The translations under genes and the position numbers were made by a program. This document shows, in pieces, positions 1 to 63,647 of a stretch of DNA of 64,000 nucleotides (the stretch's first letter is position 1; every line of letters starts with the position of its first letter). Source of the stretch: Candidatus Delongbacteria bacterium (GTDB lineage Bacteria > CAIWAD01); NCBI GenBank assembly GCA_963663545.1, contig OY760505.1, positions 128,001-192,000 on the forward strand, in the 5' to 3' direction. A model generated the notes under the pieces. It had not been told where the DNA came from. It did no database searches and saw only the letters and a program-made list of their open reading frames with translations.

Positions 1-1959
1 ATCGCCTGCATGTTCTTCGAATTCCGTGCCGCCGATCTTAGCCCGGACAACAGCGAAATGGCCTATAGCGGCACTTTGCATCAAGAGGGCGTCGCGGATG
101 ACTGGTATCTCTGTGTTCTAGTCGAGGAGGAGGCACCGGCCTTTGGCGCGGCTTTTCCAGGATCGCAGCCGGAGCCTGCCTGGACCAGTGCCGACAGCGT
201 ACAGGTAGGCGTGCGTGTTACAGACGCGGGGTGGTGGGTGGATGCGAGCACACTAGCCTGGCGACTGGATGCGAACGCCGATGGCGAGTACAGCGGTACT
301 GCGGAGCAGTGGCAAACTCTGGACGGCTATGAGGATGCTGCTGATATCACCCTCCGGCAATGGCTGCACCCCGCTGCAGATGGTGTTTACAGCGTAGAAT
401 GGCGCGCGTGGGACAGGAATGGTTCCGGACCTGGATACAGCATGACGCAGGAAGGAATCGCCGACGATGTTGTGATACGCGTTGATCGTACGCCACCGCC
501 AGCAACAATCCTCTATGTGCAATCCACCGGTGAGAGTGAGACACACTTGCTGTTCGCGCCCAGTAGCGAGGCGCATTTCTCACGCTACGAGTTATACCTC
601 TCTAGCGACAGCCTGGTCAGCACAAGTGACCAGCTCTGGAGCGTCAATCAGGACCCGGCCCTCGCGCAACGTGATACATGGAGCACAGCGGTGACCGGGC
701 TGGAGATGGGGCATCGCTACTGGCTGGCAATGCGTGTGCGTGACCTGGCTGGCAATGTTAGTCCATGGTCGAATCGCGTGAGCGTGCTCACGGAGGGATT
801 CGCACCTCGTCCAATTATCGATCTGCGTGTGGAACGCGCCGGTGGGCCCTGGAAGCTCGTCTGGTCGGTGCCTTACTTTGATGTGGCGGGTGGAAGCCAC
901 GTCTGCATTGACCACTACGAAATCCACGCGTCGGATAGCCCCTGGTTCACCATCGACAACGATACGTGGATTGCCAATAGCACTGTGCCCTGGTTCAACT
1001 TGGCAGCGCCGACGGGAGGCAGCGTTTTTTACCAGGTCCTCAGCGTAGGGGCGGGAGACGGCCTTCTGGGCCTGGATCGTGTACTCATCCCCGCCGGAAG
1101 CTTCACCATGGGGCACCCTGCCGTGGACGAGTTACCGCATAGCGTGCAGCTACCCGCTTATACCATCGACCGCTGTGAGGTCACAAATGCGGGCTATGCC
1201 GAGCTCCTCAACTACGCCCTGGACAACAGCTTGTTCAATCTAGTGGCGGATGCGAGCGCCGTGTATTCGCGCGAAGGGCATCTACTGATTGATCTCACAC
1301 GTAGCGATACTGGTTTGTATTACAGTGATGGAGTTGTCCTTGTCTATGGTGGCAAGGAGGATTATCCCGCGCACGTCAGCTGGTTCGGCGCAGCCTGCTG
1401 TTGTGACTGGTTGAGCGCTGCAGCCGCAAGACCGCTATTCTACGATGGTGATTATTCGGTCTCCGCTGAACACAATCCTTATACAAGCGGCAGTTACCGT
1501 CTTCCCACAGAAGCCGAGTGGGAACGAGCAGCCCGCGGTGACACAGATATGCGAGTTTTTCCCTGGGGTGATACATTCAACATGGAGATCAACGGCGTGA
1601 CACAACACGCCAATGTCCTGGGATCAGCCGATGGCTTCAACGGGGATGCGCCCGTGGGCAGCTTTCCTACGGGAGTCAGTCCCTGGGGTTGCCTCGATAT
1701 GGCGGGCAGCGCATGGGAGTGGACCAACGATTGGTGCTGCGAGGAATACACAGGCGCTGATGTCGAGCCTTTTGGCGCGGAATCCGGGAGTCAGCGTGTG
1801 ACACGAGGAGGTGCGTGGAACTACCTCTACACGCTATCGCAAGTATCACGCCGCGGACAAAACCTGCCAGCCAACGCAAGTGGTAACGATGGCTTTCGCA
1901 TCGTTCAACTCACTCAGGGGAGCGTCAGAATGCGGAACTCGACATCCGCCACGCCCTGA
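1..1959 (+). CDS. Large protein with FN3-like region and C-terminal FGE-sulfatase (SUMF1/CLec-fold) domain; probably 5'-partial
   Basis: Frame is open from position 1; motifs IPAGSFTMG, EVTN, YRLPTEAEWERAARG, DMAGSAWEW, RGGAW...GFRIV. Confidence 0.85.
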   Translation: MACMFFEFRAADLSPDNSEMAYSGTLHQEGVADDWYLCVLVEEEAPAFGAAFPGSQPEPAWTSADSVQVGVRVTDAGWWVDASTLAWRLDANADGEYSGTAEQWQTLDGYEDAADITLRQWLHPAADGVYSVEWRAWDRNGSGPGYSMTQEGIADDVVIRVDRTPPPATILYVQSTGESETHLLFAPSSEAHFSRYELYLSSDSLVSTSDQLWSVNQDPALAQRDTWSTAVTGLEMGHRYWLAMRVRDLAGNVSPWSNRVSVLTEGFAPRPIIDLRVERAGGPWKLVWSVPYFDVAGGSHVCIDHYEIHASDSPWFTIDNDTWIANSTVPWFNLAAPTGGSVFYQVLSVGAGDGLLGLDRVLIPAGSFTMGHPAVDELPHSVQLPAYTIDRCEVTNAGYAELLNYALDNSLFNLVADASAVYSREGHLLIDLTRSDTGLYYSDGVVLVYGGKEDYPAHVSWFGAACCCDWLSAAAARPLFYDGDYSVSAEHNPYTSGSYRLPTEAEWERAARGDTDMRVFPWGDTFNMEINGVTQHANVLGSADGFNGDAPVGSFPTGVSPWGCLDMAGSAWEWTNDWCCEEYTGADVEPFGAESGSQRVTRGGAWNYLYTLSQVSRRGQNLPANASGNDGFRIVQLTQGSVRMRNSTSATP

Positions 1960-2363
1960 TCGAGATAGCCGAGGCGTCGGGCAGCCTCGTAGCTCAAGTC
2001 CAGTACACGCCCACTTTTAAAGGGGCCACGATCGTTGACGACAACCTCGACTCTTTTGTCGTTGGCAAGATTGCGTACTTGAATCCATGTTCCCAAGGGA
2101 AGACTGCGATGTGCCGCACTCATGCCGTGCATATCAAAGGTTTCGCCGCTCGCGGTAGGGCGTCCGTGAAAATCGGCCCCATACCAGCTCGCCTTTCCGC
2201 GTAGAACCTGGTTCGCCTTGTACCCGCCGTTGTCACCACTGCCCTGCACCGATCCTGTACTGCGTTGCCCGTCGTCCGGATTGCTGGTAAAGCGCGGAGC
2301 CGGAGTACACGCGATCAACAAGAACAGCAGCGACAGCAGAAGAAGTGGTGTACCACGCTTCAT
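1914..2363 (-). CDS. rlpA: Septal ring lytic transglycosylase RlpA family lipoprotein
   Basis: Lipobox LIAC; GKASWYG..FHGRPTASGE, AAHRSLPLGT, VNDRGPF, DLS motifs. Confidence 0.93.
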   Translation of the reverse strand: MKRGTPLLLLSLLFLLIACTPAPRFTSNPDDGQRSTGSVQGSGDNGGYKANQVLRGKASWYGADFHGRPTASGETFDMHGMSAAHRSLPLGTWIQVRNLANDKRVEVVVNDRGPFKSGRVLDLSYEAARRLGYLDQGVADVEFRILTLP

Positions 2364-2953
2364 CTCAGTGCTCCCGTAGTACGTAGTAGCAGGTAGATCC
2401 TGGCCAGATGCTCAACTTGTTCCGACAGATGAAAGGCATCCAGCAGGGAAGAAGTGCTGTAACACAGCATCCCGTGACGCTCTAAAAGTAAAGCGCGGTG
2501 CTTAGCAAGCAGAGGGCGAGCAGTGTAATACAACTCGTCACTGCCTGCGGGAGCCCAAGGCACCAGACCCACGCTACCAAAGGCTTGAGCCGCTTCGGGC
2601 AGGGCTGTTGTGTCCAGTCCCTCGGCCAAGGCGGAACACGCTGTTGCATGCGGCGAATGCGTGTGTATCACAGCTTGAGTTTCCGGCATCAGCCGGTAGA
2701 CGCCCGTGTGAAGGGCTACTTCGCTTGTTGCCCGCAGCGATCCCGAATCTTGCTTACCGTTCAGATCAATCTCAACAATGTCCGTGGGAGCAAGCATCCC
2801 TTTGCAGAGACCGGCGGGGGTAATCAACAGATGTGATTCACGACCGTGCTGTACGCGCAAACTAAGATTACCCTCATAGCCTGCAATGTGGCCGCGTTCC
2901 CAGAGCAAACGGCCTGTATCACAGATAAGCTGGCGCTCATGCGGATGGCGCAT
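2360..2953 (-). CDS. Class II aldolase/adducin family protein
   Basis: GNLS, ITPAG, TSEVALH, HTHS, LLERHG; start placed at the ATG overlapping the upstream TGA. Confidence 0.9.
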   Translation of the reverse strand: MRHPHERQLICDTGRLLWERGHIAGYEGNLSLRVQHGRESHLLITPAGLCKGMLAPTDIVEIDLNGKQDSGSLRATSEVALHTGVYRLMPETQAVIHTHSPHATACSALAEGLDTTALPEAAQAFGSVGLVPWAPAGSDELYYTARPLLAKHRALLLERHGMLCYSTSSLLDAFHLSEQVEHLARIYLLLRTTGALR

Positions 2954-5366: not shown

Positions 5367-6200
5367 GTGAATCACGCTATCACAAACTCCGGCCGCATGG
5401 CCCCCAAACCCCTCGCCTTGATTTGTGGTGCCTCTTCGGGCATCGGTCGTGCGCTGTCGATCGAGGCTGCCCACCGTGGAATGGATTGCCTATTGGTGGC
5501 GCGCAGCGGTGAACGCTTGCTGGAATTGAAAACGCGCATCGAGCGCGAGGCGCCGGTGATGGCAACCATCCTTCAGGCCGACCTCTCACGAAGCGAAGGG
5601 CGCAGCGATCTACTGGAACTGATCCGCTACTGTGAGCTGAAGCCGGACCTGCTGGTTCTGTCCGCAGGAATGCTGGTCGCAGACAGCGTGTTGGCACAGA
5701 ACGCCAGCTTGCGCGGTCAGATGCACGACCTTCACATCAGGGCATGTAACGAGCTCATCCACGACCTGCTACCCGTGATGCAGAAGGAGGAAAATGGCTA
5801 CGTGCTGCTGATTTCCTCGCTTTCGGCGCTGGTTCCGTTGCCGGGATTTGCTGCCTACAGCGCAAGCAAAGCCTATCAGCTTTCACTGGGTCTCGCACTT
5901 GCGCCCGAGCTCGAATGCAAGGGCATTCACCTCTGCGTCTGTGCGCCAGGCCTGGTAGATACACCCCTTTTTGAACACGGGGGACTTCCGCGACCGCCAC
6001 ATGGGCTGCGCGCGGAAGAGGTTGCGCGGTCTGCGCTCAAGGCGGTTTTTGCCCGACGTCGCCTACTCATGCTCCCCTGGCGTTCTTCCTTGCGTAATCG
6101 TTTTTTCTGGCTGTTGCCTGAGTTTCTGCAGGCGCGCGTGTTACGCAATCTAGCATCCCGTATCACGGATTGGCAGAAACAAACGGAAGCTCATTTGTGA
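5367..6200 (+). CDS. Short-chain dehydrogenase/reductase (SDR)
   Basis: GASSGIG and YSASK catalytic motif. Confidence 0.92.
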   Translation: MNHAITNSGRMAPKPLALICGASSGIGRALSIEAAHRGMDCLLVARSGERLLELKTRIEREAPVMATILQADLSRSEGRSDLLELIRYCELKPDLLVLSAGMLVADSVLAQNASLRGQMHDLHIRACNELIHDLLPVMQKEENGYVLLISSLSALVPLPGFAAYSASKAYQLSLGLALAPELECKGIHLCVCAPGLVDTPLFEHGGLPRPPHGLRAEEVARSALKAVFARRRLLMLPWRSSLRNRFFWLLPEFLQARVLRNLASRITDWQKQTEAHL

Positions 6201-6225
6201 TACAAATAGATGTGATACAAATAGA
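6196..6225. repeat. 15-bp tandem duplication TGTGATACAAATAGA x2
   Basis: Exact copies at 6196-6210 and 6211-6225, overlapping the SDR stop codon. Confidence 0.9.
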
Positions 6226-6285
6226 AACGGTACGTCGTCGAGGCTGGTGCTAGTTTCCAGGTATCAGGAGAAAGGAAGGACCCCA

Positions 6286-6528
6286 ATGGCCAGCGAGTTG
6301 TTGCAAAGCCTGCAGAAACGTTTAGCTGAGCATGGCAAGGGAAACCTAGATCCCGCTCAAGCAAAACAGGAATTGGAGCTACTGCTATCCGCCACCGAGC
6401 GCATGCTTAACAATCTGCACCTCGATTTCGAAGTCCCAACAAGTGACCCGGGATTGCTGGAAATGCACGTGGCCCTGCTGGAGTTGCGTTCAGCGACGAA
6501 TAACCTGATCAGCGACTTACAAGTGTAG
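6286..6528 (+). CDS. Small helical hypothetical protein
   Basis: AGGAAGGA RBS before ATG 6286; followed by a terminator. Confidence 0.65.
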   Translation: MASELLQSLQKRLAEHGKGNLDPAQAKQELELLLSATERMLNNLHLDFEVPTSDPGLLEMHVALLELRSATNNLISDLQV

Positions 6529-6531
6529 AAC

Positions 6532-6560
6532 AAAAAACCCCGCAAGTGCGGGGTTTCTTA
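6532..6560. terminator. Probable bidirectional intrinsic terminator
   Basis: AAAAAACCCCGC-AAGT-GCGGGGTTTCTT hairpin between convergent genes. Confidence 0.85.
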
Positions 6561-6633
<73 letters not shown>

Positions 6634-6662
6634 AGATCTGCTGTGTCAAACAGCAGACACCC

Positions 6663-6691
6663 AATATAGCCTTTCGAATATTGGATGTCAA
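6663..6691 (-). promoter_or_regulatory. Sigma70-type promoter for tRNA-Phe
   Basis: TTGACA-17 bp-TATATT about 30 bp upstream of the tRNA. Confidence 0.8.
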
Positions 6692-6709
6692 GCACGCCAG
6701 CTTCAGCCC

Positions 6710-7375: not shown

Positions 7376-7413
7376 AGTCCGGGATCCAATCCATTCACAG
7401 TCTGCAGTTTCGA

Positions 7414-8076: not shown

Positions 8077-8083
8077 CCTATCC

Positions 8084-9199: not shown

Positions 9200-9392
9200 G
9201 GAATCAGGCACCTCAGTTGTATCACACTCGCTTTTCAGCGGATGCAACCTACATGAGAATGGTTAAATCCATGTTAGCGAATCGCTGCGGCAAGTAGAAA
9301 TCGTCACGCCAACATTCGTAATTCAAGTTCGCAACAGCCAAGTAATAAAGGGGCGCAGGGGAAAGCCCCGTGTTATCGAGTCCCGAATCGTA

Positions 9393-9420
9393 AGTTTACA
9401 TAATATCTATTATATGCACT
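9393..9420 (-). other. dif site (XerCD chromosome dimer resolution site)
   Basis: AGTGCATATAA-TAGATA-TTATGTAAACT: 11-6-11 layout; left arm resembles the E. coli XerC arm GGTGCGCATAA and right arm matches the B. subtilis-type TTATGTAAACT; intergenic and AT-rich. Confidence 0.85.
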
Positions 9421-9436
9421 CATAAGTGAACGAAGC

Positions 9437-17407: not shown

Positions 17408-18186
17408 CCGCGAATGATACCCCGTTCTGACGCAGTAATGAAGGCATGGATCAGGCGTGCGTCCTCGTCCATCTCCACCAGCCCGGCCAATTCGGCCAGT
17501 GCCAGGCTGACATTCTGGCTGTTCTTGCCGAAGAACAGCCGGTACATACGCTTGATACGGCGCTGACGTTCCGCGTCGAATCCCCGCCGCGCCAAGCCGA
17601 CGGAATTGAGCCCGCAGTAGCGCAAGGGATTATCGTTGGCCATGATGTAGGGGGGCACATCCTTGCCGACTGCGGTAGCGCCGCCGATGAAGGCATGACT
17701 GCCGATGCGCACGAATTGATGCGCGACACTGGTGCCACCCATGATCACGTTGTCGCCCACTTTGACATGGCCTGCGAGCTGCACGCCGTTAGAGAAAATG
17801 CAGCCGTCGCCGATCTGGCAATCGTGGGCAACGTGTACGTAGGCCATCAAGAGGCAGCCAGCGCCGACTCGTGTCACAAGCGCTTCTTCCGTAGCACGGG
17901 CAAGGGTCACATACTCGCGTATCACGGTGCGCGCGCCTACTTCCAGGCTGGTCTCTTCGCCGTGATACTTCAGATCCTGTGGAAGACAACCGACGGAAGC
18001 GGCGTGATACACCTGCACTTCAGCACCAAGGCGTGATCCCCAGCAGATCTGCGCCTGCGGTCCGATGCGGCAGCCGTCGCCCAGCACCACGTTGTCTTCG
18101 ATGACCGCGTAGGGACCGATTTGCACATCCTTGCCCAGCTGCGCCCCGGGATCAATGACCGCACTGGGGTGGATCAGCGGATTCAT
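17404..18186 (-). CDS. lpxA: UDP-N-acetylglucosamine O-acyltransferase
   Basis: Hexapeptide repeats; PQDLKY, HVAHDC, HQF, GLNSVGL. Confidence 0.97.
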   Translation of the reverse strand: MNPLIHPSAVIDPGAQLGKDVQIGPYAVIEDNVVLGDGCRIGPQAQICWGSRLGAEVQVYHAASVGCLPQDLKYHGEETSLEVGARTVIREYVTLARATEEALVTRVGAGCLLMAYVHVAHDCQIGDGCIFSNGVQLAGHVKVGDNVIMGGTSVAHQFVRIGSHAFIGGATAVGKDVPPYIMANDNPLRYCGLNSVGLARRGFDAERQRRIKRMYRLFFGKNSQNVSLALAELAGLVEMDEDARLIHAFITASERGIIRG

Positions 18187-19574
18187 TTGTCTACCACCGA
18201 AGCCATCATCTCGGCACTGCAGACCAGTTCGCCATCCACATAAGCCTTGCCTTCCATGGTGCAGATACCGCGTTTGTTGCGCAGCATGTTCAGCTCCATC
18301 ACGAGCTGGTCACCGGGTTTGACGGGCTTACGGAAGCGCACCTTGTCCAAGCCGACGAAGTAGACGACTTTTTCCTCAGGGTGATCCACGGAATTCAGCA
18401 GCAGGATGCCTCCCGTCTGGCCCATTGCCTCAACAATCAGCACACCCGGCATAATGGGATGTCCCGGAAAGTGCCCTGGAAAGAAGGGCTCATTCGTTGT
18501 GACACATTTGATGCCGCGCACAAATTCACCGGGCTTGAGCTCCGTGATACGATCGACCAGCAGAAAGGGATAACGGTGCGGCAGAATGCGCTCGATGGCC
18601 GCTGCGTCAAAGACAACACTGCCCGTGATACGCTGCTGATACTCCTTCTGCAGGCTCTGCTTGACCGCTTCCTGCTTGAGCATCTTGACCAGTGCCACAT
18701 GGCTGGTGTGTCCGCCGCGTGCCGCCAGGACGTGGGCTTTCAGCGGTTGTCCCAACAAGCAAAGGTCACCGGCCAGATCCAGCACCTTGTGTCTCACGGG
18801 CTCGTTGTAGAAGCGCTGCTGGACATTGTTGAGAATGCCGTTGGCTTCGACGACGATTTCCTGGTTGTGGTAGCCGAAGGCGTCCTTCAGTCGCTCGACC
18901 TCGTCGTTGTCCGACAGATCGGCGAAGATCAGCGCGCTGTCCAGGCCTCCGCCGCGAATCAGGTTGCGCTCTTTCATCGCCAACAATTCTGAGAGGAAGC
19001 AGAAGGTGCGCGCCGGAACGAACTCCTCCTCGAACTCCTCCCAGCCGTACATGGACGTGTACTGCGTGCCCAATGCTGGATTCTGGTAATCGACCATGTA
19101 GGTGACACGGAATTCCTCACTGGGAAAAACCACGATGTCCACGCCCGAATCGTCGTGATACACGATGGTGGAATCCAGCTCGAGGAAGTTGCGTTCGACG
19201 GGGAACTCCTGAATGCCAGCTTCCTTCAGCGCCTCAAAAAAGGGTAGGCTGCTGCCGTCCAGGATGGGGGGCTCCGGTCCAGTGAGCTCGATCAGACAAT
19301 TGTCGATGCCCAGTCCGGCCAGTGCGGCCAACAGATGCTCGACGGTGTGCACTTTCACTCCGTCAACGGCAATCACGGTACCGCGATCGGTGGAAATGAC
19401 ATTGGCCACATCCACAGGGATATCCAACGTTCTTCCCTCGACCTCGCGACGAAAGACCAGCCCCTCGCCCGGACCGGCCGGATTGAAGGTAGCGCGGCAG
19501 AGCTCGCCCGTATGCAGGCCGCTGCCTTCCACCGAAACCGCGCGCGCAACGCTGCGCTGCATCTTGTACATCAT
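18183..19574 (-). CDS. lpxC: Bifunctional LpxC deacetylase / FabZ dehydratase fusion
   Basis: GLHTG, TVEHLLAAL, HKVLDL (LpxC); LPHRYPFLLVD, FPGHFPGHPIMPGV (FabZ). Confidence 0.97.
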   Translation of the reverse strand: MMYKMQRSVARAVSVEGSGLHTGELCRATFNPAGPGEGLVFRREVEGRTLDIPVDVANVISTDRGTVIAVDGVKVHTVEHLLAALAGLGIDNCLIELTGPEPPILDGSSLPFFEALKEAGIQEFPVERNFLELDSTIVYHDDSGVDIVVFPSEEFRVTYMVDYQNPALGTQYTSMYGWEEFEEEFVPARTFCFLSELLAMKERNLIRGGGLDSALIFADLSDNDEVERLKDAFGYHNQEIVVEANGILNNVQQRFYNEPVRHKVLDLAGDLCLLGQPLKAHVLAARGGHTSHVALVKMLKQEAVKQSLQKEYQQRITGSVVFDAAAIERILPHRYPFLLVDRITELKPGEFVRGIKCVTTNEPFFPGHFPGHPIMPGVLIVEAMGQTGGILLLNSVDHPEEKVVYFVGLDKVRFRKPVKPGDQLVMELNMLRNKRGICTMEGKAYVDGELVCSAEMMASVVDK

Positions 19575-28153: not shown

Positions 28154-28774
28154 TTAGTTCCTGTCACACTCCAGGGCGAAGCCTAGCAGTGTTCTCCACA
28201 GATGTGATACAGGTAGTCCCATCACGTTGAAGTAGCACCCCTCGAGCCCGGCCACCAGTAGTGCGCCCAATTCCTGAATTCCGTAAGAGCCGGCCTTGTC
28301 CATCGGCTCACCCGACTCTACATAGGCTTCGATTTCGGCGCACGAGAGCGGGTGAAAGGTAACACCTGTGATACATGCTTCGCTGGTTTTTGTGATACCA
28401 CCGCTTAGGGAGTCTTGATAATGCAAGCAGTAGCCCGTATACACTTCGTGCCTACGCCCCGCCAGGCGCGACAGCATGCGAATGGCATCCTCACGGTCGC
28501 GCGGCTTGCCCAGAATCTCGCCATCGATGACCACAATAGTGTCTGCCGAGATGATAATGCTACCCGGCGTTTGCTCCGCTACCGGACGTCCTTTGAGCTC
28601 GGCGAGCTCCAACACGAGACCGCGGGGATCAAGGTGTCCGGTGTGATCCTCGTCGACAGGAATCGTGATCACACGGAACTCAAGACCGATACGAGTCAGC
28701 AACTCTTTTCGGCGGGGGCTACCTGAGGCCAGCACCAGTGGTGGAAGCGGGGGATGAATGGAAGCCTGTGTCAC
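28154..28774 (-). CDS. maf: Maf nucleoside-triphosphate pyrophosphatase
   Basis: LASGSPRRKELL, ADTIV, GKP, DKAGSYGIQ, NVMGLP; GTG overlaps the upstream TGA. Confidence 0.95.
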   Translation of the reverse strand: MTQASIHPPLPPLVLASGSPRRKELLTRIGLEFRVITIPVDEDHTGHLDPRGLVLELAELKGRPVAEQTPGSIIISADTIVVIDGEILGKPRDREDAIRMLSRLAGRRHEVYTGYCLHYQDSLSGGITKTSEACITGVTFHPLSCAEIEAYVESGEPMDKAGSYGIQELGALLVAGLEGCYFNVMGLPVSHLWRTLLGFALECDRN

Positions 28775-29659: not shown

Positions 29660-31378
29660 TCAAAACCGGGTCAGCAGTCGCAGGTGCAGCATTCCGCGAC
29701 TCAGTTTCGTGCTTTCGCCCAGTGCGTACTGTAGCTCAAGTTGTCCACCGGCCGCCGGCAGTACCAGGGCCACTCCGCGCCCATGAGTTCGCTGATTGGT
29801 CGCCGACGGCGTGTTCCAGATCAGACTGTCCCAAAACACGGCAACACGGCTGCGCGGCCCAAGCAGGTAGCGTAGCTCGAGTTGACCTAACAGCCAGGAC
29901 TCGGCAAACAGCGATTGCTCGCGCCATCCGCGCGGACCAGCAGTGCCGCCCAAAGTAAAAAACTCATCCACGGGTAGAGTGCCGTCCCCACTCAATAGTC
30001 CCCCGCCCAGACTTGGCTGAAGCACTACACGTGGCCTCAGCGGATACCAGAGCTTCAGCCGCATCTGTTGCCGGTTCAGCGTACTTGATTCTCCCAGCGG
30101 AGGCAGGTTTTTGTACTCTTTCGTCTGGCGTTGAATACGCTCCCAGCCCAGCGAAGCCATCCAGCCCAGACGCGGATTTCGCGGATCATCACGTCGATCA
30201 GCCTCGATACCACCTCCCAGAACCAGGCTACTGGAACGGTCCACTCTGCGCATGACGCGCCCATTCAGGCTGTCCGGCAGTACTTCCTGCTGATAAAGGG
30301 ACGCCGACAGACTGAGCCATAACAGCAGGTCATAGTCCAGCTCGATACCCGCCGAGCGTTTCAGCCAAGAACTATCCTGGATCTGCTGCCGCATCTCCAG
30401 CGAGGCCGCCAGCGGTTGCCCGAAGAGAAAGGGCTCACGGTACTTGAACTGCAATTCCTGTGATACACCGTCGGGGCGGCTTCCTAGAAGATTCAGCCGA
30501 CGCCCGGTTCCCAGAATGTTATCCAGGTCGAGTTGCAGATGGAAAGCGAAGCGGCTGCCTTTCTCGTCCGTATCCGGAATCAATCCCGCCATGCCGTCAA
30601 AATGGTAGGCGGGTAGTTCGTCTAGCTCGACCAGGACGAGTTCGCCCTCAGGGCCACGGCACAGAGTAGGCCCCTGCACCTGCTGGAACCAGCCCGTTGC
30701 CAACAGACGGCGATTTGCATCACGCGCTCGCACCGGATCCCAGCGCATGCCCTCCTTGAGACGACTCAGGCGCAGCAGTGTTGACTCACGACTCATCTTC
30801 TGTCCGCGAAAGAGAACGCGCTGCAATAGCACCGGGTCGATGTGACTGAGCTGGAAATCCAGTTCCAGGCTAAGATCCTCGCCTGCGGGCCACAGACGCA
30901 TTTCACGCAGGCTGAGTGTGCTTAGGGCGCGGCCTTCTTGTTCGAGGTGATACAAGATCTCGTCGATTGCCTGCAGGAGCCGCGCTCCGTTTACGGGGCG
31001 TCCCTCACGGAACCAGCGTGATACAGGCGGAAAGTCGACCGGAGCACCGTCGATCTTTACGCGTCCCAGCAGGAGTTGCTTCCCCTCGTCCAGAGTGAGA
31101 GACACGATGCGCAGGGTGTGCTCGGCTGCGCAGACACTGTCCACATGTAAACTGCAGAAAGGATAACCCTCTACGGCGTAGACATCCAGCAGACTGTCTC
31201 CCAGGGCCAACCATTCGGATTGACTCATTGTATCACCGGCATGCAGCAATTCCCGCAGGCGGGATGTGCTGAAGTACTTACTACCCGTGATACGCAGGTC
31301 CGCGTTGACCGTGATACTCGACGCGAAGACCCCGTTCAGGACAATCAACATGAAGACTATGTGATACAGCATGCGCAT
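29660..31378 (-). CDS. Omp85/TamA-like POTRA + beta-barrel protein
   Basis: POTRA-like segments, NILGTGR, LGG..GPRGW, C-terminal F. Confidence 0.8.
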   Translation of the reverse strand: MRMLYHIVFMLIVLNGVFASSITVNADLRITGSKYFSTSRLRELLHAGDTMSQSEWLALGDSLLDVYAVEGYPFCSLHVDSVCAAEHTLRIVSLTLDEGKQLLLGRVKIDGAPVDFPPVSRWFREGRPVNGARLLQAIDEILYHLEQEGRALSTLSLREMRLWPAGEDLSLELDFQLSHIDPVLLQRVLFRGQKMSRESTLLRLSRLKEGMRWDPVRARDANRRLLATGWFQQVQGPTLCRGPEGELVLVELDELPAYHFDGMAGLIPDTDEKGSRFAFHLQLDLDNILGTGRRLNLLGSRPDGVSQELQFKYREPFLFGQPLAASLEMRQQIQDSSWLKRSAGIELDYDLLLWLSLSASLYQQEVLPDSLNGRVMRRVDRSSSLVLGGGIEADRRDDPRNPRLGWMASLGWERIQRQTKEYKNLPPLGESSTLNRQQMRLKLWYPLRPRVVLQPSLGGGLLSGDGTLPVDEFFTLGGTAGPRGWREQSLFAESWLLGQLELRYLLGPRSRVAVFWDSLIWNTPSATNQRTHGRGVALVLPAAGGQLELQYALGESTKLSRGMLHLRLLTRF

Positions 31379-53109: not shown

Positions 53110-53835
53110 TTATGAAAGCACGTGTTTTTCCAGTTCGCAACCCTCTTGCTGCCGAGGATCTTGCTGTCTAAGGCCGAATTCGAACTGACCCTGGTCCGGA
53201 GTCCAAGCCAAAGCAGCAAAGCCCGCTACTCGCCAACCTCCGGCTGTAAGCAGCATCGCCAGATACTGAAAGGTGGCCCCGGTTGTAACAACGTCGTCCA
53301 CCAGCATCACTCTCTGCCCCTTGCCGGGCTTGCGTAGTCGATACTGGCCGACCAGATTGCGCAAGCGCGCCGCCCGGTCGAGCGACTTTTGCTGACAGCC
53401 ATCGCCACGTCGCTGCAGAACCTGAGCCACAGGCAACCGCCACTCGCGTCCCAGACAACGTGCCAGGAGTAGAGCCGGGTTTCCGCCGCGTTCCCGCTTG
53501 CGCACAGGATGCGCGGGAACCGGAACCAGCACCTCGGCGGGCCAGGCGGGACGCGACCAGTGACGACAAAGCCGCCGGCACAACGCAGCCTGCCCGCCAT
53601 ACTTCACCTGGCTCAAGACCTGACGCCCCACATCCGCATAGGCAAAACGGGCACATCCAGGCAGGGACTCCGTGCCGCAGCAGCTGCTGCCCGTGGCCAG
53701 CAGCTCCTCAAGGCAGGAGTCGCACAAAAAGGCCGCCCACGGCTCTAGCTCGCCCGCGCATTGCAGACACCGGGCAGGAAGCAACAGATCCTGCATTCCA
53801 GCCAGCAGAGAGCTGCAAGCTTGAAGTACCGACAT
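53110..53835 (-). CDS. comF: ComF family protein (zinc ribbon + phosphoribosyltransferase)
   Basis: CLQC...LCDSC; VPVP; LVDDVVTTGAT. Confidence 0.9.
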   Translation of the reverse strand: MSVLQACSSLLAGMQDLLLPARCLQCAGELEPWAAFLCDSCLEELLATGSSCCGTESLPGCARFAYADVGRQVLSQVKYGGQAALCRRLCRHWSRPAWPAEVLVPVPAHPVRKRERGGNPALLLARCLGREWRLPVAQVLQRRGDGCQQKSLDRAARLRNLVGQYRLRKPGKGQRVMLVDDVVTTGATFQYLAMLLTAGGWRVAGFAALAWTPDQGQFEFGLRQQDPRQQEGCELEKHVLS

Positions 53836-56909: not shown

Positions 56910-57250
56910 CGTTTTCGGTGCTACGCTGGTGCTATTTTACAGTGGGGGAAACAGGTTGGGGAATCGCACTGGTGAGTTCCGGCATCCGTGCAACCTTCCA
57001 GCCATTGATCCGCTGTGTGATACATCTTCTCTACTGCGTTGTGTTAGGTGTGCCGGGTAATGATGGTGCGCTGGAGTCCGGGTTGCTGTCAGTCATCACT
57101 CCTTGGACTCGGCACGGTCAAGGATGTGTCACCGGCTCCCGGATGCTGGCTGCGATCAATGTATCACGAGGGTGCTGTCGGAGTGCGTAGGACAAGGCAA
57201 GGGGGTAGGGGTACAATTGTGTTCTTCAAGCTGATCCCTTTCATCGATGT

Positions 57251-57390
57251 GCCTAACGCCTCGGTTGTGAAGCCCTAAAAACGCCCTGACCGGGAGTGAC
57301 AAGCCAGACAAACCACCAATACCTTAATAGCGGGCAATTATGCTAAAATTGCGCCGCGTTTTTAGGGTCGTTACCAACCGTTTGTTAGCG
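57251..57390 (-). other. attC site of cassette 4 (140 bp)
   Basis: R'' CGCTAAC ... R' GTTAGGC; stem CCCTAAAAACGC/GCGTTTTTAGGG. Confidence 0.9.
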
Positions 57391-57442
57391 CTTCTCCTGA
57401 TATGATCGTCTATCATCATGACGAATCTTCACGGCATTATCC

Positions 57443-58510
57443 CTAATTAAGATAGATTGAAATCTCCTCCCGTAACCTGTCAGCACCATCAGAGGTATTG
57501 CCCAAAATGGTGACAACCCTGTCGTCTTCTACGGTATAGGTTGATGAAAACGAGACGCCTGGATCTCCCCCCACGAGATAGTAGGCTGAAACCTGTCCTT
57601 CGGGGTTGTGTTGAATCCAAAACCCAAGTCCATAATGAAGATTCTTACACCAATCTCCCGTGACCGTGGCTTGAATACTTAAGACTTCAGCTAACAACTC
57701 GTCACATAAAAAGTTCCCAGAGAGCAGACCATGCCACATTTTTGCCATATCATCGGCCGTGGTAAAGAGGCCGCCATCAGCGGTGCAGACGATCGGAATC
57801 TCAAAGATATTGGAGTACCATGCACCGTTGTCGTCTTGTATGTACCCGTAGGCACAGTTTTTGGGGAGTTGGTTTGATTTATAGCACCCTGTTCTGGTGA
57901 GACCAAGCGGTTCACACACGTCTTGTTGAATGTAGTCAGCATACTCCATTCCTGACACAACTTCTATCAGCAGACCTAAGATCACAAACCCTGAATTGCA
58001 GTAGGTAAATTTCTCACCGGGCTGAAAATAGGCGTCTCCGTCAACAAGTAATGGCAACATATCGGTGATGCTGAGTATCTTATGCATGGGTAGCTTCTCA
58101 AAGACTGGTCCAAAATCGTCAATCAGGCGTTCATTGAAATAGTCATAGATGCCTGATGTATTACTTAATAAGTGTCGAACCGTGATGCGTGTATCCATAT
58201 TGGGAAACGCATACGGAAGTATGTCAAAGACGCGATCCTCCAGTGACAGTTTTCCCTGATCCACCAGCCGTAAAATACCTAAGGCGGTAAATCCTTTTGT
58301 CCCAGAGGCAATACCAAAGGCCGTATCAAGGGTATTGGGTAATTCATCGTCTCGTTTTGCGTATCCGGCGGCAACATTCAAGGATATTGTCCCGTGTTCG
58401 ATAATTTGGATCACCCCTGAGAAATACGTGGCGTTTTTGACGACCTCTGTGATCTTGTGTACGTCCATAATCATTAGTTCCCTTCTGATTGTATCATCCA
58501 TTATCATCAA
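57443..58510 (-). CDS. Cassette 4: serine hydrolase (class C beta-lactamase/PBP-like family)
   Basis: FGIASGTK (SxxK), LLSNTSG, YCN, ADGGL; start uncertain. Confidence 0.9.
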   Translation of the reverse strand: MMIMDDTIRRELMIMDVHKITEVVKNATYFSGVIQIIEHGTISLNVAAGYAKRDDELPNTLDTAFGIASGTKGFTALGILRLVDQGKLSLEDRVFDILPYAFPNMDTRITVRHLLSNTSGIYDYFNERLIDDFGPVFEKLPMHKILSITDMLPLLVDGDAYFQPGEKFTYCNSGFVILGLLIEVVSGMEYADYIQQDVCEPLGLTRTGCYKSNQLPKNCAYGYIQDDNGAWYSNIFEIPIVCTADGGLFTTADDMAKMWHGLLSGNFLCDELLAEVLSIQATVTGDWCKNLHYGLGFWIQHNPEGQVSAYYLVGGDPGVSFSSTYTVEDDRVVTILGNTSDGADRLREEISIYLN

Positions 58511-58677
58511 TCACTGTACAGCTGATGGTACAACGTCACATGGCTCTATCGCGCTGTTCAGATATCGGCATATGTCTCATACTGAGCGATGGTATCGTGG
58601 TCGGGTTTGTCAAGACAAAAAAGAGGGATGATCGTAAAACTCCTCGGCACGATCTCATTGCTCTACACTCGCAGAAG

Positions 58678-58853
58678 CGCTAACGGTCAAGTTTCTATGG
58701 TCCGGGAGCGTGGCGCGGCGCTTGCGCCGAGCCACTTAGCTGTTTGTGAAGCAAACGGCTCTGAAGCGCCCAATGCGCAGCATTGTGGCGCTGGCAGCGG
58801 TGCCTTGCAAGCGACGTGACACGCCGCGGATCCATTGCAAACTTTTGTTATAC
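58678..58853 (-). other. attC site of cassette 3 (176 bp, branched)
   Basis: R'' GTATAAC ... R' GTTAGCG; outer stem plus internal hairpins. Confidence 0.85.
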
Positions 58854-58854
58854 G

Positions 58855-59979
58855 TTAACCTCGTATTGCGCCAATCACCTGATTTGTCGTGTATGAACGG
58901 CCATCAGGAACCAGACTATCTTGATCCCTGGCTACTTCCAACGATGCACCTGCTTCCATTCTAGAGCTGAGGCAGTTCTTCAAATTTTCATTGAGACTAT
59001 CCCACCACTCAATAGATATTGCGATATTTTCGAACGTCTCAAAGCAAAACTGAATTAGTAAAGATCCTTTAACGTTGTCATCCGTATCTATAAATGATTG
59101 AATGAACTTATCGGCCGAAGTGTTCTCTCCTACCCATTGAAATACAGCCAATCCTCCGCTCTCCGTTCCACACATTGTAAAAGTTAAGGCATCTAATCTT
59201 GTTCCATGATTTGCATATTCCTCAATTCCCTGAAGCACTTTTCCGCCAAAATCATTTTCTAATTGAGTAGATCCACTGCACATTAGCTCCGGAGTTTTAC
59301 TTAGCTCAACAGCAAAGAAGTGAGAATCCTCAAACGAGTTGCTTAGAAGCACATCATCATATCTTTTTTTGCTGTCATCAATATCCTCTAATCCCGCAAT
59401 TACACCGCCGGAATAGAGTTTAAATTCCTGTTGATGAGCAACCTGCTGAATCACATCTAGACCACGATCTAGTGTCTTTCCAAATTTAAGCATATCCGTT
59501 TGTCTACGTTTAGCAAACAGCTCACGGCAGACCGCTCTATAGCCAAGTAGAAAGCAAGTCTCCTTCGTCACCTCCAGTGGCCTGTCCTCAATAGGCAGAA
59601 AGACAAGCTTGTCATGATGTGAGCAGAATCCCGTGAATGTGGTAGCTTTTCCTATTCCGGTTTTCAAAAGACCCAATGCACCATCACGCTTGACGAACCC
59701 GGTAGTCGATACGTCAATCGTATACACATGAGAATCAACAGCAATCTGCTTCAGACCATTTCCATTTCTCTGGATTGAGTGGGCACGAACAATATTCCCC
59801 CCGCAGACACCCTTCGCAGCTCTTGGATGAAGGCAGTACTTCTTATCTGCCCGCTTCTGCTCTGCAATCACTTCAGCGAGATCAACTCTCTTCTCCTCTG
59901 CCCGACGCAGATGGCAGTGTTTGAACTTCTTGCCTGATCCACACCAGCAGGGACAATTCCTCAATGCTCCAATGCTCAT
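58855..59979 (-). CDS. Cassette 3: SEC-C motif domain protein
   Basis: RNCPCWCGSGKKFKHCH; further AHSIQ and FTGFCSHHD..F motifs. Confidence 0.88.
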   Translation of the reverse strand: MSIGALRNCPCWCGSGKKFKHCHLRRAEEKRVDLAEVIAEQKRADKKYCLHPRAAKGVCGGNIVRAHSIQRNGNGLKQIAVDSHVYTIDVSTTGFVKRDGALGLLKTGIGKATTFTGFCSHHDKLVFLPIEDRPLEVTKETCFLLGYRAVCRELFAKRRQTDMLKFGKTLDRGLDVIQQVAHQQEFKLYSGGVIAGLEDIDDSKKRYDDVLLSNSFEDSHFFAVELSKTPELMCSGSTQLENDFGGKVLQGIEEYANHGTRLDALTFTMCGTESGGLAVFQWVGENTSADKFIQSFIDTDDNVKGSLLIQFCFETFENIAISIEWWDSLNENLKNCLSSRMEAGASLEVARDQDSLVPDGRSYTTNQVIGAIRG

Positions 59980-59994
59980 TGTCTATCCTTGTAC

Positions 59995-60123
59995 GTATAA
60001 CATCTGTGTTTCAACAGCGGCGTCCTGGCGCGCCTTTTGCCCAAACGAGTGTTACATCTAGCTTAATCCTGTATCACGCAAAAGGCGTGACAGGCGACCG
60101 GCTGTTGGAAACACTCGTTAGGT
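59995..60123 (-). other. attC site of cassette 2 (129 bp)
   Basis: R'' ACCTAAC ... R' GTTATAC; stems GTTTCCAACAGC/GCTGTTGAAAC and GCCTTTTGC/GCAAAAGGC. Confidence 0.9.
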
Positions 60124-60167
60124 GCATAAATGGATTAATGCGAATGCAGCTAATGCTTGTCTAAGTG

Positions 60168-61181
60168 TTAATTCGCCGAAAGGGCAATACGGAAGCCAAC
60201 CCAAGAGTAGCCGGAAGCTGGATTTCCGAAATTACGATTTGCCACACGACTGTAGTGCGCAGCGTGCCCAATTGCACCTCCGTGCCCAGTTTTAAGAGAT
60301 CCTGCTTCTGGGCCATGAGGGTTATCCACAGGACTTACGTCGAAATAATCGGCATCATACCAATCCCAGCACCATTCCCAGAGATTGCCATTCATGTTGT
60401 AAATGCCCAACTGATTAGGGAGCTTTGTTCCAATCTCGCCCGGTCCACCATTGCTGCCATACCATGCATATTCACCTAAGCTGCTTTCTTCGTGACAGCC
60501 ACTATATCTGAGATTATCCTCGTTATGTATTCCGCCCCTCGCAGCATATTCCCATTCGGCTTCTGTGGGCAATCTATACCCGTTAGTGTTCCAGCTTACA
60601 TCTGGTGTAAAACTTGCAGGCCACAGAAGAGGATTAGATTCACCATCAACGGTGTAACACGGCGTACGGTTCTCTGCAATGCTTTTCAGATTACAGAATT
60701 TGATCGTATTGTACCAATTGACGTTTGCTTGTGGGTAGTTGGTCCCAGATCCACCATTCATTATGAGATTGTACTCATCATTTGAAACTTCAGTTTCACA
60801 AATGTAGTAGCTACTCAAATTGACAGTATGAACTGGCTGCTCATCATCGCCACCTTCTTGCTGTTCCCAGAAATGATCACCCATCTCAAAGGATCCACCT
60901 TCAACGAAAACCATATTTTCGGGGATATCAACAATACTGTCAATTGCTGTAACATGGAAGAACTGATACCCACTTACAGTTGCTAGTAGCTCAGCAGGGC
61001 TATCTAACGATGTTCTACCATAGATATTGTACCCATCTGCACCTGCAACCGGTTGCCACTGCAAAAGGACACCAATTGAGTCTCCGTTAACTGTTGCCTG
61101 AATCTGGACTTGGGGCGGATCAACCGCAAATGAGTTTCCAACAATGAAGAAAATGAATAACAGCGAATAAATTGTCCTCAT
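60168..61181 (-). CDS. Cassette 2: secreted FGE-sulfatase-domain (CLec-fold) protein
   Basis: GGAGG RBS; signal peptide; VEGGSFEMG, YRLPTEAEWEYAARGG, PNQLGIYNMNGNLWEWCWD, GFRI. Confidence 0.92.
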   Translation of the reverse strand: MRTIYSLLFIFFIVGNSFAVDPPQVQIQATVNGDSIGVLLQWQPVAGADGYNIYGRTSLDSPAELLATVSGYQFFHVTAIDSIVDIPENMVFVEGGSFEMGDHFWEQQEGGDDEQPVHTVNLSSYYICETEVSNDEYNLIMNGGSGTNYPQANVNWYNTIKFCNLKSIAENRTPCYTVDGESNPLLWPASFTPDVSWNTNGYRLPTEAEWEYAARGGIHNEDNLRYSGCHEESSLGEYAWYGSNGGPGEIGTKLPNQLGIYNMNGNLWEWCWDWYDADYFDVSPVDNPHGPEAGSLKTGHGGAIGHAAHYSRVANRNFGNPASGYSWVGFRIALSAN

Positions 61182-61211
61182 AACACCCTCCAAATAATTG
61201 TGAATTTATGC

Positions 61212-61285
61212 ACCTAACACGTGGCTAAGCCGCCATGCCCGCCGCTTTTGGGCGGGTATGGTCGGTCTTTAGCCTTTTGTTAACC
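61212..61285 (-). other. attC site of cassette 1 (74 bp)
   Basis: R'' GGTTAAC ... R' GTTAGGT; stem CCATACCCGCC/GGCGGGCATGG. Confidence 0.9.
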
Positions 61286-61286
61286 T

Positions 61287-61445
61287 TTATGGTCTCCAAG
61301 TTTCAACTGTGCCATCCTTACGAATGGTAACAACTGTTCTTTTTCCACATTTTGGACATCCTATCCTTTGCTCTCCTGGGACAAAAGTAATCTCACCGAT
61401 TTTTTCACCACAATGCGTACATCGAACAATTATTGTGTCTGCCAT
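61287..61445 (-). CDS. Cassette 1 ORF2: 52-aa zinc-ribbon protein; not in ORF track
   Basis: [62 protein letters not shown]; stop abuts attC. Confidence 0.8.
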
Positions 61446-61455
61446 TTTCTCTCCT

Positions 61456-61848
61456 TTACCATGTTGGTTTCTTTAAATCTTTTGATGATAAAGCACTAAA
61501 CTTCCTGTTTTCAAATGAAGGGAAATTTAGTGAGTTTGCGGAAAACCTTGGAATCAGAGAGCTTGCTATATAGATCCCCGATTTAGTTTTCTCAACTTGA
61601 AAAGAATGATTATTAAACTGAATTATTTTATCAAATGCAGCTTCAGTTAAACCACTAGAGATAACATCAACTCCAAACACGGAAAGATCTGAACAATCAT
61701 TAACGGTTTCTATTGTATTTGATATATCTGAAACAGCGTCAATGACTGAATAAATTTCATAAGCAGCTGCAATAGATTTAATAATGCCGCCAAAAACTGC
61801 TTTTTTGAATATTGCTGAGGCAATTTTGAGAAGTAGAGATTCAATCAT
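61456..61848 (-). CDS. Cassette 1 ORF1: hypothetical protein
   Basis: 130-aa ORF starting 7 bp after the attI core heptamer; AT-rich. Confidence 0.7.
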
Positions 61849-61855
61849 TTTTTTA

Positions 61856-61940
61856 GGTTAACATCTTATTCTACGGACCGTGTTATCCCGCACTTCCGCA
61901 CTTCTCTGGGTCCTGTTAAGTCCGCTCTTCGCATTTCTGT
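61856..61940 (-). other. Putative attI site
   Basis: Core G/TTAACC at 61856-61862, complementary to cassette 1 R'' GGTTAAC; imperfect direct repeats (GAAGTGCG) upstream; outer boundary approximate. Confidence 0.7.
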
Positions 61941-62133
61941 AGTCCTGTGTATCCAGCCCAGCGCGACCCCAAGGTCGCAAATCCTGCATAGATACAGCAA
62001 GGAAAAACACAGTGTTGTCAAGAAAGGTCTACACTCGATTTCACCCCTCCCAGCAGAACGCATAACTCCTTGAACTGCCCTTGTTAATCTCTTATCCTGA
62101 CAGCAGCTACGTACTTAACAGGGTGGAGTTAAC

Positions 62134-63094
62134 GTGACAGGGCAAAGATTGCGAGACCTGTTCCATGCATCATGCCGTAAGCGACATCTTAGCGAAAGCA
62201 CCGAGCGTGTCTATTGGCACTGGATCCTCAGTTTCTTGAGATTTCATGAATTGCAGCATCCACTTAGTCTGGGATCAAATGAGGTTGAACACTTCCTTTC
62301 ACACCTTGCCGTCCAGCAAAGTGTGGCCCCTTCGACTCAGACCCAGGCCCTGTGCTCCATTGTTTTCCTATACCGAAGTGTTCTACACCACGACATTGGC
62401 GATTTTTCGAGCTTCACCAGGGCCAAACCATCGAAGCACCTCCCGGTAGTGCTTTCGCGACAGGAAGTTCGGTCGCTGCTGGACAACCTAGAAGGTGTCT
62501 TCCGTCTGCAGGCCTCGCTACTCTATGGTGCCGGATTGCGCCTGACTGAATGCATGACTTTGCGAGTCAAAGACATCGACTTCGACAGGAATACCCTGTT
62601 CGTGCGGCAAGGCAAGGGCGCCAAGGACCGCAGTGCAGTGCTTCCCGATGCCATCAAGACTTCGCTGCATCAGCACGTGCTAGACCTCAGCGAGAGACAC
62701 AAACGCGATGTTGCACATGGCGTACATGTGCCTCTTCCTGGCGCTCTGGCACGCAAGTATCCCAATGCGAATCGGTCCTTAGCCTGGTATTGGTTGTTCC
62801 CATCTGCTGAAGTTCATCGATCAGAACAGGGTGGCGAACGCTGGCACCAGTCGCCAGCAACTCTGCAAAGGGCTGTTTCTACTGCCATTAAAAAAAGCGG
62901 GAATCTTGAAGCATGCGGGATGCCACACTCTGCGCCATAGCTTCGCTACACACTTGCTGGAATCCGGCACTGACTTGCGCACAATTCAGACGCTGTTGGG
63001 CCACGCCGACATTCGCACTACTATGATCTACACCCACGTTCTCGAAATGCACTCGTCTGGAGTTCGCAGTCCGCTGGAATTCGCACTTCGCTGA
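62134..63094 (+). pseudogene. intI: Integron integrase split by one extra A in an A7 run
   Basis: STQTQAL, LLYGAGLRLTE, GKGAKDR, LARKYPNA (IntI patch); [14 protein letters not shown] and TTMIYTH are in the next frame after 62890-62896. Confidence 0.93.
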
Positions 63095-63291
63095 TCGCGT
63101 ATCGGACAATCAGACGTGCTCGGCTTGGACAAATCCTTTGGCTCGGGAAAGGATGACTGCAACAGTGTCTGACCTTCAGCCCTTCCTTGCTAGCCTTTTG
63201 AGCGCCATCCCCCAGCTGCATCCCAGGCTGGCATTCCAACAAGACAAGCTCAACAACCAGCGTATCAATTCATAACAGCTGCATCCACAAA

Positions 63292-63647
63292 CACATGGCA
63301 ACAGCCAGGCCCGGCCAGGTGTGATGCCCGCTTCGCGTCCATCACCTCGACGAAGCCCCGCATCTCATTCGACTGTATCCGCAACTCCGCTTAACTGCGG
63401 GTCTTCGTCCACAGGCATTCAGGGCTTTCTGTCGAAGATGAGAGGTAGAATCGGCTCCGCCGAATCTACACGCATTCCGGCCACTGTATCCCACAGCTTG
63501 TCTATCACACGAAACTAACCAAGTCCATTGATCCACGGCATCAGGAAATGTCGCACGTGAAAGCCGAGTTGACTCCGGGCTTTGTCCCGGCGTCAACTCG
63601 GGTTGAACAAGTTGGCGTATCACATGGCAACAGCCAGGCCCGGCCAG
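63292..63647. repeat. 27-bp direct repeat flanking about 300 bp
   Basis: CACATGGCAACAGCCAGGCCCGGCCAG at 63292-63318 and 63621-63647. Confidence 0.9.

Follow-up and report, generated by a model that had tools for sequence, protein, structure and literature searches.

GTGATAC(A), a hyper-abundant word shared across Candidatus Delongbacteria, and its resemblance to DNA uptake sequences

Introduction

Why should one seven-letter word recur many times over expectation along a bacterial chromosome, in both orientations and inside conserved genes? The question was raised by bases 128,001–192,000 (64,000 bases, hereafter the window) of the single 3,721,866-bp contig, of 56.7% GC, that makes up a Candidatus Delongbacteria genome (labelled G000), in which GTGATAC and its complement GTATCAC are found throughout. 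A preliminary description of the window had proposed a chromosomal ‘self’ mark that could be an uptake signal, a methylation or recombination motif, or the site of a terminus-organising protein. To our knowledge, sequence-biased self-recognition of DNA is firmly established only in the Pasteurellaceae and Neisseriaceae. HIP1 of cyanobacteria has lately been proposed as a third case. A literature search for GTGATAC or its 8-mer extension as a whole word, in either orientation, retrieved no paper, and among the Delongbacteria papers listed, none concerned such a word according to their titles and the openings of their abstracts.

The finding proved real and strong, and the word is best described as a hyper-abundant, phylum-wide self-word of the kind represented by the uptake signal sequences (USS) of Pasteurellaceae, the DNA uptake sequences (DUS) of Neisseriaceae and HIP1.

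Abundance in the window and the genome

Exact copies of the word numbered 73 in the window, 40 as GTGATAC and 33 as GTATCAC (approximately 1.14 per kb), in agreement with the approximately 70 (about 40 and 32) counted earlier. The expectation from 100 dinucleotide-preserving shuffles was 3.79±1.82 copies, with a maximum of 8, and the degenerate form GTRWYAC was present 122 times against an expected 16.4. Across G000, 2,507 and 2,427 copies were found in the two orientations, 4,934 in total compared with 372 predicted from composition (13.3-fold). The 8-mer GTGATACA, which is GTGATAC with a 3′ A, was counted 3,149 times against an expected 81 (39-fold). No other 7-mer and no other 8-mer in G000 was as strongly over-represented.

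The excess is independent of coding

Gene calls for G000 were our own and rough (2,684 genes covering 89% of the genome), with some starts and a few genes wrong; glgB in the window, for example, was missed in the first pass. Copies were present at 1.34 per kb in coding and 1.10 per kb in non-coding DNA. Within genes, 2,245 of the 4,482 copies were in sense and 2,237 in antisense orientation, and five of the six frames were used, namely all those that do not generate a TGA stop. Sense copies were distributed as 978 in frame 0, 1,267 in frame 1 and none in frame 2, the frame with the stop, and antisense copies as 770, 715 and 752 in frames 0, 1 and 2. The earlier observation that copies lie inside open reading frames (ORFs) in several frames and both orientations thus extends to the whole genome.

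Synonymous codons were then shuffled within each gene, preserving both the protein and its codon usage. Over 20 replicates the means were 378 and 372 copies for the two orientations, approximately 749 together (largest values 420 and 394), and the observed 4,482 copies exceeded this 6-fold. Shuffling of codon order left approximately 280 copies in genes, a 16-fold difference. The rare codon ATA was strongly affected, as 27% of all its occurrences fell within the word. The preliminary description had named an observed-to-expected ratio near 1 under a codon-pair-preserving model as the result that would speak against a signal; against the synonymous shuffle the ratio was instead 6. The word is therefore a DNA-level signal and not a by-product of coding. 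A codon artefact was rejected on the same grounds, as the excess survived the synonymous shuffle and was seen alike in non-coding DNA and in five frames.

Shape and tolerance of the word

A logo of all 4,934 copies showed that the information is confined to positions −1 to +8. The base on the 5′ side was C in 42%, T in 31%, G in 21% and A in only 5% of copies, and the base on the 3′ side was A in 64% and G in 22%. Of the flanks described earlier as often T and A, the 3′ A was retained; the 5′ side is better summarized as avoiding A than as favouring T. A dispersed repeat of the repetitive extragenic palindrome (REP) or miniature inverted-repeat transposable element type was rejected, since no information lay outside −1 to +8 and 90% of copies were in genes.

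The variants GTGACAC, GTAACAC and GTAATAC, reported as recurring, were indeed enriched, in a graded manner: 13.3-fold for GTGATAC, 4.1-fold for GTGACAC/GTGTCAC, 3.1-fold for GTGTTAC/GTAACAC and 1.9-fold for GTAATAC/GTATTAC. Words outside the GTRWYAC family were enriched as well (GTGATCC, 2.7-fold; GTGATGC, 2.1-fold). Based on this gradation and on the enriched words beyond the family, the palindromic GTRWYAC was ruled out as the functional unit, and the unit is therefore an asymmetric word.

The single-base variants of GTGATACA were enriched unevenly, contrary to a simple decay of perfect sites. Changes at G1, T2 and C7 were found at only 0.2–1.0 times expectation. Position 3 accepted A (5.1-fold), position 4 T (8.6-fold) and C (3.5-fold), position 5 C (10.8-fold) and G (2.7-fold), position 6 C, G and T (6.7-, 4.1- and 3.0-fold) and position 8 G (10.4-fold). 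Such a tolerance profile resembles that of a single asymmetric reader with graded specificity and not the outcome of mutational decay, and the GTRWYAC family captures only part of it.

Distribution along the chromosome

The density of the word was even in 100-kb bins around the chromosome (3.6 Mb). The terminus-organising site offered earlier, which would be a matS-like element, was refuted because this density is uniform, with no confinement to a terminus domain. The cumulative GC skew located the terminus at approximately 129.8 kb (approximately 1.8 kb in the window) and the origin at approximately 1.95 Mb. Relative to these points, the leading strand carried 53% of the 7-mers and 56% of the 8-mers, with approximately 79% of genes co-oriented with replication. 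The earlier statement that no polarity switch occurs at dif was correct inside the window, where the bias is invisible, and incorrect genome-wide, where the weak bias flips sign at the skew-defined terminus and origin. The site dif itself was not confirmed in the window: a single search pattern, uninformative as a search, gave no match, and only the GC-skew maximum places the terminus there.

No preferred or regular spacing was seen in G000; spacing was near random with patchy density. Dense clusters, including those like the six-copy group in an Omp85-family gene of the window, were found genome-wide at about the Poisson rate, with one exception. This exception, the densest cluster of the genome, was an array of clustered regularly interspaced short palindromic repeats (CRISPR) at approximately 632,290–632,970 of contig C1, with approximately 10 repeats of 37 nt, each ending in GTGATAC, and spacers of 34–38 nt. 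None of eight spacers matched the viral loci compared, and two gave weak 22-nt matches elsewhere in G000.

Spread, turnover and loss within the phylum

Twelve species genomes of the phylum (G000–G011) were compared, nine from family f1 and three (G009–G011) from family f2, and enrichment was expressed as the ratio of the GTGATACA count to that of the reversed word. The ratio was 117 in G002, 101 in G004 and 87 in G000, followed by 43, 40 and 25 in G010, G011 and G009, 20 in G008, 16 in G003, 12 in G005 and 8 in G001. The word was thus enriched in 10–11 of the 12 genomes, in 10 of them at least 8-fold over the control. The two remaining values were 4 (G006) and 1.3 (G007), and 19 genomes from outside the phylum gave 0.55–3.3. 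In 200 kb of G009, from the other family, GTGATACA was again the top word, and flank preferences were alike in G002, G009 and the phage contig described below, with no dialect seen.

The loss was most apparent in G006, where genes aligned over 68 kb to G000 genes with 63 copies had none, and control words were kept at 6.9%. No comparable or replacement word was found in 122 kb of this genome. Within the phylum the trait is either ancestral or widespread, and genus g6 is losing it or has lost it. The same 122 kb of G006 (L006–L013) contained approximately 10 copies of a minor repeat of the type TATCGGTATC / GATAGCGAT, far above Markov expectation, which may be a REP-like element.

Site sharing was scored in codon alignments of orthologues as the same position and orientation, with 629 control words of the same composition, at approximately 55–60% nucleotide identity. 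G002 shared 32 of 221 G000 sites (14.5%; controls 8.0%), approximately twice the control, and no excess was seen in G004 (2 of 62, 3.2%; controls 4.5%) or G009 (3 of 98, 3.1%; controls 3.7%). In a small sample from a nearer relative, L001, four of eight sites were common with G000. As few sites are common to orthologues, most copies arose independently in each lineage, and what is maintained appears to be the abundance and not the particular sites.

Copies were placed at permissive, less conserved protein positions. In four comparisons, amino-acid identity at word codons and at control-word codons was 0.475 vs 0.541, 0.301 vs 0.471, 0.395 vs 0.483 and 0.476 vs 0.558, respectively. DUS and USS are likewise reported at permissive positions and to be missing from recently acquired genes (Treangen et al. 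2008).

The word is missing from foreign DNA

In the 100 genes of G000 with a GC content below 50% (102 kb), the word was found at 0.09–0.18 copies per kb, or 0.7–1.4 times chance, compared with 0.92–1.62 copies per kb, or 13–16 times chance, in genes of typical GC. An integron block in the window (Table 1) was similarly word-poor. As described previously, no copy lies in the cassette ORFs (57443–58510, 58855–59979, 60168–61193 and 61456–61848) or in the integrase gene intI; GTRWYAC variants are present in the cassette ORFs at about the chance rate (e.g. at 58158 and 60654).

Seven of the nine longest word gaps of the genome (12.9–34 kb, six of them at 46–49% GC) fell in one block of approximately 137 kb at 3.58–3.72 Mb. 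Its core, at 3.594–3.718 Mb of contig C1 (approximately 125 kb, 46–49% GC), is almost without the word. The core encodes three IS200-type, one IS66-type and one DDE transposase, a TnpB-like protein, HsdM, a phage tail-collar protein and a DnaA-like ATPase, together with second copies of the housekeeping genes xseA, CCA-adding enzyme, psd and aroQ. Either this core is a foreign island of very large size or the assembly contains a chimeric join here. The low-GC genes at chance level, the cassettes and this block support the proposal of a chromosomal ‘self’ mark that is missing from imported DNA.

A word-rich phage

Viral contigs were scanned for two direct copies of the word (at least 120 matching stretches) and for an inverted pair (at least 115). 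The dense direct-copy matches were rejected as candidates after inspection of six loci, five being collagen-like GGT-GAT-ACA repeats and one a tandem repeat. In the viral loci L096, L107, L103 and L135 (GC 0.33–0.44), collagen-like Gly-X-Y written as GGT-GAT-ACA imitates the word locally, which makes such repeats a trap for k-mer host assignment by the word. Among 233 loci counted from the matches listed, dispersed enrichment at a matching GC was present only in L189, part of a phage contig (L189/L293) of 16,795 bp, 56.8% GC and an estimated completeness of 46%.

The contig has 47 dispersed copies (27 and 20 in the two orientations; 2.8 per kb) and none of the reversed control. A never precedes the word, A follows it in 37 of 47 copies, and all five frames are used. 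The encoded proteins include a large terminase (TerL), a ParB-like nuclease, a single-stranded DNA-binding protein, a replication initiator, an M15 endolysin and a YqaJ exonuclease with an Erf annealing protein. A second, near-identical contig, taken from a different record, had 1.85 copies per kb, and seven contigs of similar GC with 81–85% identical TerL had 0–0.39. At the word sites of L293, a sister phage differed on average at approximately 3.5 of 7 bases, mostly with other amino acids, although some sites are double-counted through spurious alternative-frame ORFs; overall nucleotide identity between the two was 0.68.

Against G000, L293 gave no blastn match and two weak translated matches only, neither pointing to a prophage. 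No integrase was found in the 46%-complete piece. A single 30-nt match in G002 lay in a coding region and was centred on the word itself. Temperate phages of Pasteurellaceae are reported to accumulate the USS of their hosts, USS-poor phages being recent arrivals or lytic (Szafranski et al. 2019); the L293 result therefore fits an uptake-sequence model.

A TET-associated glycosyltransferase (Pfam TAGT) is encoded at 5736–6449 of L293 (1245–1958 of L189), which hints at hypermodified cytosines in the DNA of this phage. Two other viral contigs of approximately 61 kb (L188 of G032 and L190 of G033; 96% completeness, GC 0.56) have six GTGATAC-N5-GTATCAC hairpins each, clustered in 6–7 kb at 5598–12666 and 28039–33993, respectively. 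These are a local hairpin repeat only, with no genome-wide enrichment of the word.

Evidence for and against an uptake or recombination signal

Among the variants offered by the preliminary description, an uptake signal would fit best. Like USS and DUS, GTGATAC(A) is a short asymmetric word present approximately once per kb, on both strands and in genes; it is shared by related taxa, missing from recent imports, located at permissive positions and accumulated by a putative phage of its hosts. GTGATAC(A) is tentatively postulated to be a self-word for uptake or recombination of the USS/DUS type, with a confidence a little short of an even balance, preferential uptake being suggested by analogy.

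On this reading GTGATAC(A), with any base other than A on its 5′ side, would be a phylum-wide self-word, its abundance sustained by an ongoing directional process acting on native double-stranded DNA irrespective of strand, frame and chromosomal position. The transformation machinery would preferentially take up or recombine word-bearing fragments, so that word-bearing alleles would displace word-less ones by molecular drive, possibly with selection, and copies would build up to approximately 1 per kb wherever proteins tolerate them. Recently imported DNA would be without the word, and (pro)phages co-evolving with their hosts would gain it. Uptake or recombination as the step at which the word is read is what we infer from these observations.

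Several observations weigh against such a signal. The word is short (7–8 informative bases) and has no extended flanking signal. Inverted pairs that form terminators are common for DUS and USS, whereas in G000 inverted word pairs and terminator-like hairpins were not above chance. Nor was a bias towards gene termini found, the density being flat along G000 genes; Pasteurellaceae uptake words are reported to be biased in this way (van Passel 2008). Apart from these points, the word itself differs from those of USS and DUS and belongs to another, uncultured phylum.

A further difference concerns the receptor, which for DUS is reported to be ComP; no ComP-like receptor was identified here. ComEC was present in 12 of the 13 genomes searched, and G000 has a complete type IV pilus (T4P) cluster at 2,732,806–2,748,836, with its minor pilins at 2,734,492–2,737,539, together with ComEA-like (near 1,912,443) and ComF-like genes; the comF claimed for the window stands only as a ComF-like gene (Table 1). 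Pilin, secretin and ComEA-like genes were found in word-rich and word-free genomes alike, except that secretin was not found in the 90%-complete, 300-contig assembly of G007, so that none of ComEC, ComEA and secretin follows the distribution of the word. A pilus-borne receptor was rejected as the T4P cluster is as conserved in word-free G006 as in G002 (pilin identity 87% vs 86%), and the cluster therefore gives no receptor lead. Overall, no candidate receptor or reader emerged among ComEC, pilin, secretin, ComEA, the T4P cluster and methylases.

The phage also adds to the points against. No CRISPR or prophage link to a host was found with the eight spacers and the searches of G000 and G002, and its 2.8 copies per kb are twice the 1.33 of G000, a result that does not follow from passive acquisition through drive. 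With a density above that of the host, selection on the phage or a repair bias may have played a part.

The furthest-reaching form of the uptake reading is that a whole candidate phylum of FCB-type (Fibrobacteres–Chlorobi–Bacteroidetes) bacteria would use GTGATACA for self-recognition in transformation, as an independent origin of uptake sequences outside the Proteobacteria. The receptor would have been lost in one genus, and phages would have been loaded above host density through long lysogeny or to exploit the preference of the host. This is possible, though on balance somewhat doubtful.

Alternative explanations

The alternative that survives best, although rather unlikely, is a HIP1-like word. 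A conserved DNA-binding or DNA-modifying protein, such as an orphan methylase or a nucleoid-associated protein, would read GTGATACA, selection for a chromosome-level function (e.g. nucleoid structure, a methylation-dependent self label or repair targeting) would keep its density, and phages would copy the label. HIP1 (GCGATCGC) is comparable as a hyper-abundant octamer found in all frames and conserved on the scale of a phylum, and the graded tolerance of GTGATAC(A) resembles the binding profile of a protein. The density in L293, above that of the host, suggests selection on the phage and not passive drive. Candidate proteins were also available, as a small N6/N4 methylase was conserved in five of five genomes tested and an IHF/HU-family gene is located at 50150–50437 of the window.

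HIP1 is reported to be a palindrome with cognate methylases, conserved sites and a periodicity of 10–90 kb; the present word is asymmetric. Its near-random, patchy spacing also weighs against this reading. None of the methylases searched for (N6/N4, N6 and C5) was confined to word-rich genomes: word-free G006 and G007 have the small N6/N4 enzyme too, and word-rich G009 gave no C5 methylase match. The methylation-motif variant of the preliminary description accordingly gained no support. Weak site conservation (approximately twice the control in G002 and none in G004 or G009), together with placement in the least constrained codons, speaks against a function of individual sites but is no argument against selection acting on density. 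The function of HIP1, long unknown, is now proposed in recent reports to be methylation-dependent uptake or a self watermark. As this work ties HIP1 to methylation-dependent transformation, the HIP1-like and uptake readings may merge.

A by-product of repair or gene-conversion bias, in which a host enzyme would resolve mismatches in favour of the word, much as in very short patch repair, in all DNA that replicates in the cell, phage DNA included, is unlikely. Such a bias would explain the turnover of sites and their placement in permissive codons, and it would load phages too and could carry them past the density of the host where their genes are under weak constraint; a single lost enzyme would account for a genus that has lost the word. 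Repair of the Vsr type was ruled out, as Vsr was not found in G000, G001, G004, G007, G008 or G009–G011, which include the word-rich G000, G004 and G009–G011, yet it is present in word-free G006. The absence of a C5 methylase match in G009 also counts against this explanation. The tolerance profile revealed no strongly depleted single-mismatch donor word, positions 1, 2 and 7 being at 0.2–1.0 times expectation and the others enriched. The sister phage, at an average of approximately 3.5 of 7 bases in a count that includes spurious alternative-frame ORF pairs, is beyond a one-step correction.

A Chi-like or nuclease-protection mark, which would stop or modulate a host exonuclease or defence nuclease and so spare native DNA and the phages that mimic it, is very improbable. 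Chi, recognized by RecBCD or AddAB, is likewise an over-represented octamer of native DNA and a possible self label, and the absence of GTGATAC(A) from foreign DNA and its density in a phage would be expected of such a mark. Chi sites have a strong strand polarity and are enzyme-specific. Here the polarity was only 53–56% despite the 79% of co-oriented genes, and the same word is common to lineages with different enzymes. RecC was found in nine of nine family f1 genomes, including word-free G006 and G007, and in none of three family f2 genomes, where adjacent AddAB-like genes (approximately 980 and 1,090 aa) were present instead. Chi itself was ruled out by the weak polarity and by this sharing of the word. 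From these gene contents, the DNA-end-processing machinery appears to have switched within one small phylum.

That there is no signal at all, with the word produced by biases in codons, dipeptides or composition or serving as a protein site specific to the terminus, can be dismissed. Its sub-words are themselves frequent, and most of the count is ‘explained’ by a maximal-order Markov model, but the word is 6–16-fold above shuffles, equally dense in non-coding DNA, present in five frames, uniform along the chromosome and missing from the orthologous genes of the close relative G006.

Implications

The tolerance profile, the spread over a whole phylum with loss in one genus, and the statistics on turnover and permissive sites with matched controls are new here, as are the exclusion of the Chi, Vsr and pilus-cluster explanations and the word-rich phage with word-free sisters. 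If the uptake or recombination reading is true, GTGATAC(A) would be a fourth unrelated word, conserved phylum-wide, that one genus has lost and a phage has copied, and genomic watermarks would be a recurrent solution. Even HIP1, the best-studied such word, has according to recent reports only now been tied to transformation. The word-rich and word-free sister genera provide a natural experiment for finding the reader, and the word is a defined oligonucleotide for uptake, pull-down and methylation tests. It can also serve as a lineage barcode that separates native from imported or mis-assembled DNA, flagging the integron cassettes and the 125-kb block, and that links phage contigs to their hosts.

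Features of the window and minor observations

The locations of the word and of related features within the window are listed in Table 1.

Table 1. Word copies and related features, in window coordinates.
Feature	Position	Strand	Remarks
GTGATAC copies (73)	472..63623	40 +, 33 −	Counted against shuffles
Three copies, 3′ end of short-chain dehydrogenase gene	6160..6218	6160 −, 6197 +, 6212 +	Word count
Three copies within lpxA (17404–18186)	17919..18010		One, at codon-alignment position 164, common with L001 at the orthologous position
Three copies within lpxC-fabZ fusion gene (18183–19574)	18544..19161	+	One common with L001
Three copies, Maf-family gene region	28204..28398	+	Word count
Six copies in 420 bp of Omp85-family gene (29660–31378)	30947..31367		Densest spot of the window
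ComF-family-like gene	53110..53835	−	Weak match, below curated cut-off; part of the generic competence set of G000
Word-poor integron block	57168..63616		GC 49%; one exact copy in 6.4 kb (60071, between cassettes)
Integron integrase gene (intI)	62134..62940	+	Profile positions 6–254 of 315; zero word copies

The intI ORF encodes 268 aa and is followed by a separate ORF of 87 aa at 62831–63094; a frameshift in the gene, or its truncation, is therefore possible. A 20-nt inverted pair (60112–60131 and 61204–61223) with an attC-like look flanks the cassette at 60168–61193.

The gene at 18183–19574 encodes LpxC and FabZ in one 463-aa protein, an arrangement typical of the FCB group. Its nearest homologues outside the phylum are 40–43% identical.

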